From positions 13,355 through 77,354 of the forward strand of contig CAZDIO010000102.1 of the NCBI GenBank assembly GCA_964505555.1: a DNA stretch of 64,000 nucleotides, in the 5' to 3' direction. The DNA is from an uncultured Bdellovibrionales bacterium (lineage in GTDB: Bacteria > Bdellovibrionota_C > UBA2361 > SZUA-149 > CAZDIO01). The notes below the pieces were generated by a model. That model did no database searches, had not been told where the DNA came from, and saw nothing but the letters and a program-made list of their open reading frames with translations. The translations under genes were made by a program, and so were the position numbers. Positions 46,483 to 53,146 of the stretch are shown piece by piece (the first letter of the stretch is position 1; each line of letters opens with the position of its first letter).

Positions 46483-47196
46483 GTGGTGAAAGGGACAACG
46501 GAAAAATTAACTGAAGAGCAGATTCCCCTCGTAATTGAAAATATTCTTTATGCAAAAAAACTGGCGAGGCAGTTTTATCAACAACGAAGCCACTTCGGTT
46601 TCGATGTTGAGGATTTTGAAGGCGCAGCATTGTTTGGATTATGTGACGCTGCAAGGAGGTTTGAGCCTGATAAGACACTTCATTTTAGAACATTTTCCTA
46701 TTTTCGCATTCGGGGTGCGATGTATGATCTGCTGCGACATGGGGGGGGAATTTCGAAGAAACACTTCAAGTGTTTCATTGAAAATCGAAATCAAACGGGA
46801 GAGGGGACAAAACCTCGAGCAGAGGAAGAAGGGAGCCTCCCCTATTCATTTGCAAGAACTGCTGAGGAGTTATCGAGCATTATTGCCACGATTGAAGAGA
46901 TCGATATCGCTGTGCATGTCAGCACGGACAGCGAGATTCCTGAACTCAGCTACGCACGAGACCTAAATCCTGAAGAGATCAATACCATTCGTGCAACCCG
47001 GTCCTATATTAGAAAACTTATCTCTCAACTTCCCACTGAACAACGAACCGTAATTGAACTTCGCTACTACAATGGCGCTACCTTTGATGAAATTAGCGCA
47101 AATCTCGGTGGGCACTCACGGAGTTGGGTTTCACGAACCCATGTTCGAGCTCTTGATAATTTGCGAGGGATGATTCTTAGCGAAAGGAGAGTGTAA
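46483..47196 (+). CDS. Sigma-70-family sigma factor, group 3 (FliA/sigma-28-like)
   Basis: Region 2 FRTFSYFRIRGAMYDLLR and region 4 RYYNGATFDEISANLGGHSRSWVSRTHVRALDNLR. GTG start preceded by the SD aaggagg. Its stop shares one base with the sctJ ATG (TAATG). Confidence 0.85.
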   Translation: MVKGTTEKLTEEQIPLVIENILYAKKLARQFYQQRSHFGFDVEDFEGAALFGLCDAARRFEPDKTLHFRTFSYFRIRGAMYDLLRHGGGISKKHFKCFIENRNQTGEGTKPRAEEEGSLPYSFARTAEELSSIIATIEEIDIAVHVSTDSEIPELSYARDLNPEEINTIRATRSYIRKLISQLPTEQRTVIELRYYNGATFDEISANLGGHSRSWVSRTHVRALDNLRGMILSERRV

Positions 47197-48131
47197 TGAC
47201 ATCCTCAAAATGGAAAGGAATTTTTCTTGCGCTCGTAGCGTTTTTTCAGGTCAGTTGTAAAGAGACCGTTCTTCATAACTTAGATGAGGTGCGAGCCAAT
47301 CAGGTAAAAGTAACACTAGAGAAACGAGGAATTACTGCGCAAAAGCTTTTTGAAGGGAGCGGATGGAGTATTCGAGTCAAGCGTGCTGACGAAACAGAGG
47401 CACTCTCGATTCTTGAAGAAAGCAGAGTTCTCAAACGGAATCTCCGAACCCCGATAGAACCACCAAAGGGGCTTATTCCAAGCCGAGAGGAACGAGCATC
47501 ATTTTCAGAACGGCAACTGGCGGCAAGTTTAGAAAGTACTCTTGAGCGCTTACCCTATGTGCTAGAAGCTCGAGTTCATCTGAACTTAAATGCCGAAGAG
47601 AACCTTCAAATGGTTTTGCCAAAAGAGGGCCATACGGGAAGTGCTCTGATTGTCACCGATGATCATATGCCTGATCATTTAGCAATTCAAAAATCTCAAG
47701 TACAACAACTCATTGCAGGAGCATCAGGAGTAAACCCACAATCAATCTCGGTAGTAATCGCCAAAGCAAGTGCTGAAAACTACGCAGAGCCACAGATCCA
47801 TAAAGTAGCAAAGCCAGTAGAGACGACGAAAAAAGATACTCCCTCCCATTCTCCATCGTGGATAAAAAAGCTGATAGTGCATGCTCGACAGTATCAAACA
47901 TTTTTAATCTATCTCGCTGGGGTATTAATTGCAGTTCTTGCACTCCGATTGATTTTTCGAAAAAACCCATTTCGAAGTGAGCAAACAATACCGAGTTTTC
48001 AAATGCCTCCTCTGAAGAACTCAAAAAATACCGTCTCCTCTGGTGTTCTGGTCAACGGTACCCAACACGGAAATGGCAGTCAGTTTAAACTGCAACCAAA
48101 CAAACAACATGAAACATTGGAGGTGTACTAA
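47196..48131 (+). CDS. sctJ: T3SS inner-membrane ring lipoprotein, SctJ (YscJ/PrgK/HrcJ family)
   Basis: Lipobox-like FFQVSC. The stretch CKETVLHNLDEVRANQVKVTLEKRGITAQK...LIPSREERASFSERQLAASLESTLERLPYVLEARVHLNL is colinear with YscJ. A C-terminal TM helix is present (FLIYLAGVLIAVLALRLIF). Confidence 0.85.
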   Translation: MTSSKWKGIFLALVAFFQVSCKETVLHNLDEVRANQVKVTLEKRGITAQKLFEGSGWSIRVKRADETEALSILEESRVLKRNLRTPIEPPKGLIPSREERASFSERQLAASLESTLERLPYVLEARVHLNLNAEENLQMVLPKEGHTGSALIVTDDHMPDHLAIQKSQVQQLIAGASGVNPQSISVVIAKASAENYAEPQIHKVAKPVETTKKDTPSHSPSWIKKLIVHARQYQTFLIYLAGVLIAVLALRLIFRKNPFRSEQTIPSFQMPPLKNSKNTVSSGVLVNGTQHGNGSQFKLQPNKQHETLEVY

Positions 48132-48132
48132 G

Positions 48133-52507: not shown

Positions 52508-52528
52508 TCTTAGCGCGCTGTATGGGAG

Positions 52529-53146
52529 GTGAAAATGAATATATCTTATAGAAAAATCTCTCTTCATCATTTAGCACTCTGGAGTTTTGTCTGTTTCATT
52601 CTTTTCTTGAGTACTGGCTGTATTTACCGAAATAAAAATAGCCTTACGGCTCATGAAGCCGTAACTCGGGAAACAAAGATGAAGTCACTCCTTGCTTTTA
52701 GTGTTTCACAGCTTCGAATCGGAGATGAAGTGGCACTTGATCGCGCCTATGCAACGCTTGAGCTTGCACGAGAGTTAGACCCAAACGATGCACGAGTGTT
52801 TGATGGTTTAGGAAGTGTGGAATGGCGTCGCGAAGGGTATAAGTTAGCGGAGTTCTACTTTAAAAAAGCGGTATCTCTTGATCCTAACTATTCTCGTCCG
52901 TATGCACATCTTTCGCTTGTTGCAGAAAGAAATGGTGATTATCAGGCAGCAAAAGAGCTCCTTCTAAAATCTCTTGAACTTAATCCTCTTAATTACCGGG
53001 CAAGAAACAACTACGCCGCCCTTCTTGTTCGTTACGGAAATCAAACAAGTAATGAACAAACGGCGTACTATGAGTTTCTAAAAGTTGCCCGAGGTGCTTC
53101 AAAAGAAGATCCCGTTCTTCAGTATAATCTAGGTCGGTTTGAGTAG
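52529..53146 (+). CDS. TPR-repeat lipoprotein (last gene of the T3SS operon)
   Basis: Lipobox LSTGC after a hydrophobic leader. Three to four TPR-like repeats follow (AYATLELARELDPNDARVFDGLG..., AEFYFKKAVSLDPNYSRPYAHL..., AKELLLKSLELNPLNYRARNNYA). SD gggaggtg. Confidence 0.7.
   Translation: MKMNISYRKISLHHLALWSFVCFILFLSTGCIYRNKNSLTAHEAVTRETKMKSLLAFSVSQLRIGDEVALDRAYATLELARELDPNDARVFDGLGSVEWRREGYKLAEFYFKKAVSLDPNYSRPYAHLSLVAERNGDYQAAKELLLKSLELNPLNYRARNNYAALLVRYGNQTSNEQTAYYEFLKVARGASKEDPVLQYNLGRFE

Follow-up and report, generated by a model that had tools for sequence, protein, structure and literature searches.

A conserved sigma-factor-led operon of Bdellovibrionota-like bacteria, apparently an undescribed type III secretion variant with mixed flagellar and injectisome traits

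We analysed a 64,000-nt stretch of contig CAZDIO010000102.1 from an uncultured Bdellovibrionales bacterium (hereafter the window, to which all positions refer) and found that nine genes at 46483-53146 form a compact operon related to type III secretion systems (T3SSs). It encodes, in order, a sigma factor, an SctJ-type ring lipoprotein, a small helical protein, a FliM/FliN-like pair, two needle/rod-family proteins, an FHIPEP export-gate protein and a tetratricopeptide-repeat (TPR) lipoprotein. This is apparently an undescribed, conserved type III secretion variant in which flagellar and injectisome traits are mixed, and its product is probably a divergent type III secretion machine that bears a needle. 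The reading we prefer, and rate as an even call, is that the operon supplies the structural half of a T3SS that is split and lineage-specific, its core coming from a dedicated second locus under the operon's own sigma factor.

Results

A nine-gene unit conserved across deep divergence

All nine open reading frames (ORFs) lie on the + strand, with the ends listed in a first-pass annotation made from the letters of this DNA, and are separated from ORF1 to ORF9 by -1, +1, +1, -26, +95, +28, +11 and +21 nt. The stop codon of the sigma factor gene (TAA, 47194-47196) and the start codon of sctJ (ATG, 47196-47198) overlap at A47196 within the string gtgTAATGac, and a Shine-Dalgarno-like AAAGGAGAG stands immediately 5' of that ATG. 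The tight co-directional packing and the one-base overlap that the annotation had described were both reproduced exactly. Database entries for six of the products (sigma, SctJ, ORF3, ORF6, ORF7 and SctV) start and stop where the window ORFs do.

Database comparison of the FHIPEP protein returned one identical entry and then a large family of more than 120 relatives at 39-57% identity; the few that carry names are metagenome-assembled genomes (MAGs) labelled Bdellovibrionota, Bdellovibrionales, Oligoflexia or "Deltaproteobacteria". Contigs of eight members chosen across this family (L081-L088) were read fully, giving nine loci with the window. The eight share the order sigma factor, SctJ, small ORF(s), in most cases a SpoA protein, one or two proteins of ~100 aa, FHIPEP and TPR lipoprotein. 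A scan of metagenomes for the C-terminal motif of ORF6 showed the same layout in L090, L093, L097, L098, L100 and L101 too. The identical gene order was seen in 11 further independent contigs (L081-L088, L093, L098 and L100), at an SctV identity of ~38-56%. Proteins of L081 and L082 are 50-56% (SctV), 41-44% (SctJ) and 34-50% (sigma) identical to those of the window, and the junction between sigma gene and sctJ is tight in all loci, from +15 to -47 nt. The flanks are unlike in every locus and hold TonB receptors, tRNA synthetases, tat genes, hemB or exosortase genes. In a search of genome contigs, matches to the universal DAMPGKQM motif predominated and none was a member of the family. We also sought more complete versions of the operon among deep-branching members and among the metagenome matches to the ORF6 motif, and found only the minimal operon, apart from one Myxococcota-like cluster (L104) that is described below.

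Because the same order recurs in 11 contigs with unrelated flanks, and because the gate proteins fall into a single clade of more than 120 members, the operon is likely to be a functional unit under selection. The nine-gene unit is real, conserved across deep divergence and apparently specific to Bdellovibrionota-like bacteria. In L083 (8771-9377), L088 (8817-9388) and L086 (8337-8973) the FliM-like gene is missing or shortened and two ORFs of ~83-130 aa stand in its place, and the cytoplasmic platform is therefore variable within the family.

The gate protein belongs to a third FHIPEP branch

ORF8 (50429-52507, +, 692 aa) is the FHIPEP export-gate protein, with an FHIPEP score of 547 bits. 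It reached 513 bits with the SctV model TIGR01399 and 475 bits with the FlhA model TIGR01398, both below cut-off. For the window protein and its eight orthologues the SctV model led the FlhA model by 5-38 bits; scores across the nine were 446-515 bits for TIGR01399 (cut-off 692) and 435-500 bits for TIGR01398 (cut-off 772). The matches among PDB structures were YscV with 372 bits, FlhA with 305 and SsaV with 304.

We then placed 123 family members and 80 other proteins (203 in all, 591 aligned columns) in an unrooted neighbour-joining tree. The family clade and the FlhA clade were each recovered in 100/100 bootstrap replicates and the injectisome SctV clade in 84/100, and the family sits outside both of the others. 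The injectisome group comprises sequences from Chlamydiae, Archangium, Polyangiaceae, Verrucomicrobia, Lentisphaerae, Desulfovibrionales, Bradyrhizobium, Achromobacter and Erwinia, while the FlhA group is drawn mostly from loci with a fliA homologue 3' of the gene, usually 4-5 kb off. These labels were checked with a hidden Markov model (HMM) of the family's SctJ: ring proteins of 263-326 aa (SctJ, 72-81 bits) were confined to loci of the injectisome group, and those of 528-567 aa (FliF, 23-30 bits) to loci of the FlhA group. Mean corrected distances were 1.29 between the family and the injectisome group, 1.39 between the family and FlhA, and 1.18 between injectisome and FlhA groups; with distances this saturated, neighbour-joining can displace a fast-evolving lineage outward. 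By these sequence comparisons the ORF8 family appears as a third FHIPEP branch, slightly closer to the injectisome side. The earlier view that the conserved SctV blocks resemble InvA/LcrD rather than FlhA could not be upheld in that form: the protein is indeed not within the FlhA clade, yet it is outside the injectisome SctV clade too, and the profile margin amounts to 5-38 bits.

The ring protein and the putative rod and needle proteins are injectisome-like

ORF2 (47196-48131, +, 311 aa) encodes an SctJ-type inner-membrane ring lipoprotein. It scored 32.3 bits with Pfam YscJ_FliF (gathering score 24.4) and 77 bits with the SctJ model TIGR02544 (cut-off 162), and its PDB matches were PrgK, MxiJ and EscJ only. 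The lipobox cysteine is followed by KETVLHNL, and a C-terminal transmembrane (TM) helix at residues 232-256 leads into a cytoplasmic tail of ~55 aa. All nine orthologues have the lipobox cysteine followed by K/R-E-x-[IL]-[LV]-H, a single C-terminal TM helix and a cytoplasmic tail of 35-60 aa. These sequence traits, and a length of 230-311 aa versus ~550 aa, point to a ring protein of SctJ type and not of FliF type, and agree with the earlier description of it as an injectisome feature.

The two proteins encoded just 5' of the gate gene appear to form a needle/rod pair. ORF6 (49769-50071, +, 100 aa) is a putative SctI-like, that is inner-rod-like, member of the needle/rod superfamily; it is present in 9/9 loci and ends in a near-invariant SNxExSxHExxMxAxRNxR. 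Its homologue in L104 is followed by a TPR chaperone, SctN, SctQ and SctR/S/T/U, which is the position of an inner-rod gene. ORF7 (50100-50417, +, 105 aa) is a SctF-like candidate needle subunit. A (D/S)SP turn lies 21 residues ahead of its C-terminal SN...IIxNxR helix, the same spacing as in PrgI, and the helix common to its orthologues reads SNxIxxxxETxxxIIxNxR. Two of seven orthologues matched Pfam T3SS_needle_F (PF09392; best E 6.4e-5), and profile searches of the PDB gave a SsaG-like fragment (7y6c_F, E 0.0085-0.045) and PrgI (E 0.9). The ORF6 and ORF7 profiles are homologous to each other (hhalign probability 93.9%, E 1.5e-7). For the claim that two proteins of ~100 aa belong to the needle family, support comes by way of the orthologues and the hhalign comparison and makes membership a tentative assignment; of the window proteins taken singly, ORF6 had no Pfam match and ORF7 neither a Pfam nor a needle-profile match.

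The last gene of the operon, ORF9 (52529-53146, +, 205 aa), encodes a TPR lipoprotein of outer-membrane type with the lipobox LSTGC. A lipobox is present in 9/9 orthologues, and the gene is invariably directly 3' of the FHIPEP gene. It is most like PilW-type lipoproteins (PilW TIGR02521 44.9 bits, below cut-off); a PilW/PilF-like role as pilotin or periplasmic scaffold is possible.

Sigma factor and cytoplasmic platform are flagellum-like

The first cistron, ORF1 (46483-47196, +, 237 aa), encodes a group-3 sigma factor of FliA/WhiG type with Sigma70 regions r2 and r4. Its best family was FliA/WhiG TIGR02479, whose cut-off of 189.6 bits it misses with a score of 83.8, and the closest PDB structures were the WhiG-type 6pfj and, second, FliA. 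The gene is present and stands first in all nine fully read loci.

Searches of the window proteins against profiles gave no family for ORF3, ORF4, ORF6 or ORF7, and ORF4 (48410-49333, +, 307 aa) was approached through its predicted fold, which is that of a FliM-fold protein: a helix at the N-terminus precedes a CheC-like domain in the middle (~57-220), and a beta region resembling SpoA follows at ~225-290. Foldseek matched it to full-length Salmonella FliM in cryo-EM maps of the C-ring over 281-303 columns with E ~1e-8. At the sequence level, neither a profile search of the PDB nor Pfam applied to 30 homologues showed FliM or SctQ similarity, and detectable homologues number 31 among 1.84 billion representative proteins. 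The predicted model gives ORF4 the layout of FliM, in a comparison for which the PDB library contains no SctQ N-domain. ORF5 (49308-49673, +, 121 aa), which overlaps ORF4 by 26 nt, is a SpoA-domain protein of FliN/SctQ-C type, with 25.9 bits for FliMN_C against a gathering score of 23.8; a SpoA gene occupies its position in 7/8 other loci and was not called in L084. If the predicted fold is right, the two are a FliM/FliN-type C-ring pair, that is, a cytoplasmic platform of the kind that marks a flagellum. The first-pass annotation had described ORF4 and ORF5 as a split SctQ-like protein; the division into two ORFs and the SpoA domain of ORF5 stand, and the architecture of ORF4 is instead FliM by predicted fold. 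Between ring and platform genes lies ORF3 (48133-48408, +, 91 aa), a soluble helical protein with HEAT/alpha-repeat-like sequence that is possibly an adaptor or chaperone.

The gene set is a mosaic, in which SctJ and the needle/rod proteins are injectisome-like and the sigma factor and FliM/FliN pair flagellum-like. What had been called a sigma-led, stripped-down T3SS-type operon is confirmed as such, with its SctJ, needle-family proteins, split C-ring pair, FHIPEP and TPR lipoprotein; its label "injectisome-type" is not, the FHIPEP being of a third clade. The flagellar side of the mosaic raises the question of whether a second flagellar system, or the sole flhA/fliM/fliN/fliA set of the host, has been mis-read as an injectisome. 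Several family members are indeed annotated as "flagellar biosynthesis protein FlhA", the sigma factor is FliA-like and ORF4 FliM-like, and many true flagellar loci have fliA 4-5 kb 3' of flhA. We consider this very unlikely, as the FHIPEP lies outside the FlhA clade (100/100), the ring is a 230-311-aa SctJ-type lipoprotein and not a FliF of ~550 aa, and ORF7 orthologues match the needle family. Moreover, no FliF, FliG, rod, hook, Mot or FlhB/FlhF gene was found in the operon or its flanks, where isolated flagellin or FlgE genes alone occur (window, L084 and L086).

The export core is missing at every locus

Nine genes, sctC, J, N, Q, R, S, T, U and V, form the core of non-flagellar T3SSs (Abby and Rocha 2012). 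Pfam searches of the 56 further ORFs outside the locus revealed no SctN ATPase, SctL, SctR/S/T/U, SctC, SctD or flagellar basal-body gene. With the operon and upstream ORFs included, these scans took in all non-nested ORFs of at least 120 aa except three; the ORFs covered by BLAST alone, of 150-160 aa, lie at 45544-46005 (-) and, nested, at 46535-46966 and 62164-62637. All window ORFs of 60 aa or more were also compared by BLAST with the ORFs from 80 loci of T3SS or flagellar type, and again no missing core gene was detected; outside the locus the matches were confined to a flagellin, ParA and a receiver domain. ORF3-ORF7 contain no hydrophobic segment, and therefore no cryptic SctR/S/T is concealed within the operon. 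The first-pass annotation had reported no SctN, SctL, SctR/S/T/U, SctD or SctC in the 64 kb, and both methods bear this out.

The same holds for the relatives. SctN and SctR/S/T/U are absent within 5-10 kb in the 11 other contexts of the operon, so that the cluster of sctN, sctR, sctS, sctT and sctU that would mark an injectisome was seen neither there nor in the window, and no secretin or SctD-type match was obtained in the window or any flank examined. The operon's proteins would be scaffold, docking platform and axial parts of a T3SS, and by themselves could make no export channel. Since an SctR/S/T core is what axial subunits polymerise on and what FHIPEP rings encircle, such a core would have to be supplied from elsewhere. 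The putative rod/needle pair, with an ORF6 homologue beside SctN/Q/R/S/T/U in L104, likewise implies an SctRST core.

One place from which a core might come is the flagellum of the same cell. The operon would then supply just the parts in which a flagellum and an injectisome differ (ring, FHIPEP docking, FliM/FliN-like platform, rod, needle and sigma factor), to be assembled around the flagellar FliP/Q/R-FlhB core and the FliH/I/J ATPase, one engine serving two surface structures. The genes missing in 12/12 contexts are the most conserved and most interchangeable parts of T3SSs, and the sigma factor and C-ring pair are flagellar in type. The hosts are also apparently flagellated: a flagellin gene lies at 30396-31259 (-) in the window, another directly beside the operon in L086, and FlgE and flagellin genes within 10 kb of it in L084. 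Yet rod subunits and an FHIPEP ring need a close fit to their core, the FHIPEP of this family is about equally distant from FlhA and from injectisome SctV, and the arrangement lacks a known precedent. We know of no FHIPEP or SctJ paralogue that works with a heterologous FliPQR core, and we regard a shared core as rather unlikely. An evolutionary form of the idea, in which a needle apparatus stands on a single FliPQR-FlhB-FliHIJ core with two sigma-chosen front ends and the lineage is a surviving intermediate between flagellum and injectisome, we likewise hold to be unlikely. Such an intermediate would already have gained the SctJ ring and needle and would still keep a FliM/FliN-type C-ring and sigma-28-type control.

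A locus without any catalytic or channel part, in which a regulator gene comes first, could also encode something that does not secrete: a T3SS-derived membrane complex for envelope sensing or sigma regulation, or an accessory to flagellar biogenesis. Regulatory roles have been suggested for reduced loci before, as for the ETT2 remnant of E. coli (PMC3459982). What makes this distinctly improbable is the set of proteins that has been kept. All nine loci still encode polymerising subunits of needle/rod type whose C-terminus hardly varies, the full-length FHIPEP including its cytoplasmic domain is hard to explain without export, and the conservation is far deeper than in decaying remnants.

A conserved promoter-like motif precedes the sigma gene

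A sigma-54-like -24/-12 motif, TGGCATGACCTTGCA (46398-46412, +), lies 71 nt 5' of the start codon of the sigma gene and is the window's sole match to TGGCAY-N3-4-TTGCW. The motif occurs once each, 50-85 nt 5' of the sigma gene, in six of the eight other loci (L081, at 6088-6101; L082; L083; L085; L087; L088, at 7210-7224), and had seven matches in 80 unrelated loci (~1.6 Mb). Its spacing is GG-N9-GC in the window and GG-N8/9-GC across loci, whereas the sigma-54 consensus is GG-N10-GC (TGGCAC-N5-TTGCW). One possibility for the conserved motif is an RpoN promoter of non-canonical form; another is a site for a different factor. About 75 bp 5' of it lies a 17-bp palindrome, TGAGGCAAATTGCCTCA (46308-46324), a candidate site for an enhancer-binding protein. 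Palindromes at a like relative place, about 60-100 bp 5' of the motif, were found in L081 (TGATGCAATATGCATCA, twice; 5998-6014), L085 and L088 (7141-7157), with degenerate copies in L082, L083 and L087; motif and palindromes together precede the sigma gene in 7/9 loci. In sequence these palindromes resemble activator sites, and no activator gene was found in cis at the locus. A site of canonical sigma-54 spacing, TGGCACGAGAAGTGCT, was observed elsewhere in the window at 31452-31467 (-), between an SLT transglycosylase gene and the flagellin gene, and points to expression of flagellin under sigma-54 in this organism.

The scan for a sigma-28-type consensus gave nothing convincing, and scans for sigma-70 promoters and terminators remained at chance level. 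An internal promoter for the needle genes was considered for the 95-nt gap between ORF5 and ORF6; it is unlikely because that gap is not conserved, being 12-45 nt in most other loci, and the other gaps within the operon vary likewise. Beyond the last gene, at 53185-53273 (+) between the TPR gene and a downstream GT2 gene, lies a hairpin whose 32-bp stem is an almost perfect inverted repeat (minimum free energy -69 kcal/mol, z -8.1; 0/200 shuffles fold as well). It is the probable 3' end of the transcript, possibly a terminator or else a REP-like element; in L081 another long inverted repeat, unlike this one, occupies its place. The simplest reading of these elements would be one transcript from the promoter-like motif to the hairpin.

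A proposed split system with its own sigma factor

In the split T3SS that we favour, an activator bound to the upstream palindromes would fire the sigma-54-like promoter, and the transcript would supply ring, gate, sorting-platform and axial subunits along with the sigma factor. The sigma factor would then switch on genes elsewhere in the genome. An SctR/S/T/U-type core, and probably an ATPase complex, would be supplied from elsewhere, most likely in our judgement from a dedicated, sigma-controlled second locus. The completed machine would export rod and needle subunits and then further substrates, as in the dispersed chlamydial systems.

Several points weigh against this proposal. In 12 independent contexts, including the window, flanks of at least 3 kb showed no further T3SS-related gene, and no second locus came into view within 5-10 kb. 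In nearly all known T3SSs sctV typically adjoins sctU, sctRST or sctN, and an operon that always has sctV without these genes beside it is unusual. An outer-membrane channel gene is not in view at the locus or in the flanks. Membership of ORF6 and ORF7 in the needle family is transitive, by way of orthologues and L104, because the window proteins themselves match no curated profile. Finally, with a spacer 1-2 bp shorter than that of any canonical sigma-54 promoter, the motif is only putatively sigma-54-dependent, which touches the promoter step.

Neighbouring genes and the rest of the window

Directly 3' of the operon, a GT2 glycosyltransferase gene (53330-54337, +, 335 aa; Pfam) is a conserved neighbour whose membership of the system is uncertain. 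It follows the TPR gene directly in the window and in L081, L082, L083, L087, L088 and L093, and is absent from L084-L086. With it go a convergent gene for a membrane protein of ~385 aa (PIG-V/GT87-like where Pfam matches) and often an Rce1-like CAAX protease gene; this module spans 53330-57695 in the window, 12836-18529 in L081, 12577-14673 in L083, 8879-11049 in L087 and 12773-18448 in L088. It may be an envelope or protein glycosylation module tied to the system.

Just 5' of the operon, at 45472-46026, a 78-aa ORF ending in YRICFLWNGIDADAVEIVDYH is followed by a 97-aa XRE/HTH protein. The pair resembles a toxin-antitoxin system of HigB/HigA type, with the toxin presumed from its motif; it had no Pfam match. 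At 44021-45376, ~1.1 kb 5' of the operon, lies the gene for a 451-aa Ser/Gly-rich protein of no family with a glycine-zipper segment, which is not kept beside the operon in other genomes and could be a substrate or unrelated. Further upstream, at 36658-40814, a gene for replication initiator protein A (RPA family) adjoins parA and parB in what looks like a plasmid- or chromid-like module, while other genes of the contig look chromosomal (hemB, hemD, icd and serA). The region 1-29185 is devoted to polysaccharide or glycan biosynthesis, with three DegT-type aminotransferases, Wzy-like and Wzx-like proteins, several glycosyltransferases, a split transketolase, a sulfatase-family protein and a PMT_2-type protein.

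Relation to known systems

The searchable literature yielded no description of this operon family or of its arrangement, and none of the systems compared here has its gene set, its sigma-first order or its FHIPEP clade, in keeping with the earlier remark that a group-3 sigma gene coupled to sctJ as first gene is not known from the Ysc, Inv-Mxi-Spa, Hrp or chlamydial loci. That all named members are MAGs may be why it has not been described.

Documented precedents are the long-conserved reduced T3SS loci of Myxococcales and the scattered loci of Chlamydiales (PMC3459982). The Myxococcales systems ("Myxo" short and long loci; the "needleless T3SS*" of Myxococcus xanthus) share with our operon that they are reduced, secretin-less and long conserved, with SctJ and a SctI-like rod. 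They keep R/S/T/U/V, N, J and I and are without SctF and secretin (PMC3459982). In the window operon, by contrast, V and J remain together with a FliM/FliN-like pair and an SctF-like gene, and R/S/T/U and the ATPase are absent in cis. They differ also in that the window operon is led by a sigma factor and has its FHIPEP outside the clade that holds SctV of Archangium and Polyangiaceae. Both the Myxococcales and the present hosts are former delta-proteobacteria, many of them predatory. An ORF6 homologue lies within the Myxococcota-like cluster L104 (Ga0326597_10002537, 8441-18776), a GC-rich T3SS with genes for a SctI-like protein, a TPR chaperone, SctN, an 830-aa SctQ and SctR/S/T/U. L104 has the SctI-like gene alone in common with the window family and is otherwise a different system; it hints at a link between the family and Myxo-type systems.

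In the dispersed chlamydial T3SS, too, core genes are distributed over several loci (PMC3459982). Those loci jointly give a complete injectisome with secretin, in which they differ from what we see. In Chlamydia, too, a sigma-28 gene is found paired with one that is flhA-like. The window FHIPEP is nonetheless not of chlamydial type, as scores with NF004571, the model of the chlamydial FlhA-like protein, reach only 225-270 bits and the SctV proteins of Chlamydiae (L005, L046) fall in the injectisome clade.

Cascades in which sigma-54 and an activator switch on an alternative sigma factor are familiar from HrpR/S and HrpL in Pseudomonas syringae and from FleQ/FlrA and FliA in polar flagella; here as well a sigma-54-like motif and palindromes precede a T3SS-linked alternative sigma gene. 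HrpL differs in being an ECF sigma factor that is transcribed alone, whereas the group-3, FliA/WhiG-like sigma gene of the window is a first cistron that overlaps sctJ. The ORF4-ORF5 pair resembles both the flagellar switch proteins FliM/FliN and the split HrcQa/HrcQb of Pseudomonas syringae, in that adjacent genes encode a larger protein ending in SpoA and a small SpoA protein. It differs from FliM/FliN in the lack of a FliG in the operon and of an evident CheY-binding N-terminus or FliM/SctQ sequence similarity in ORF4. ETT2, the cryptic locus of E. coli, is also an incomplete T3SS without several core genes (PMC3459982). It is, however, a recent decaying remnant in one species group, while the window operon is intact and syntenic at ~40% protein identity.

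With ATPase and R/S/T/U always missing, the family stands for either a new split architecture or a core shared by two machines. Many Bdellovibrionota are predators and the hosts are apparently Bdellovibrionota-like, so the system may be an unnoticed cell-contact weapon or surface organelle. T3SSs are currently split into a flagellar and a non-flagellar branch, and to our knowledge the Myxococcales systems are the only proposed intermediate between them. With this family comes a third branch of the gate protein, one that is deep and widely sampled, together with a mixture of injectisome and flagellar parts. Through that mosaic, the order in which a flagellum turned into an injectisome, step by step, becomes open to direct test.

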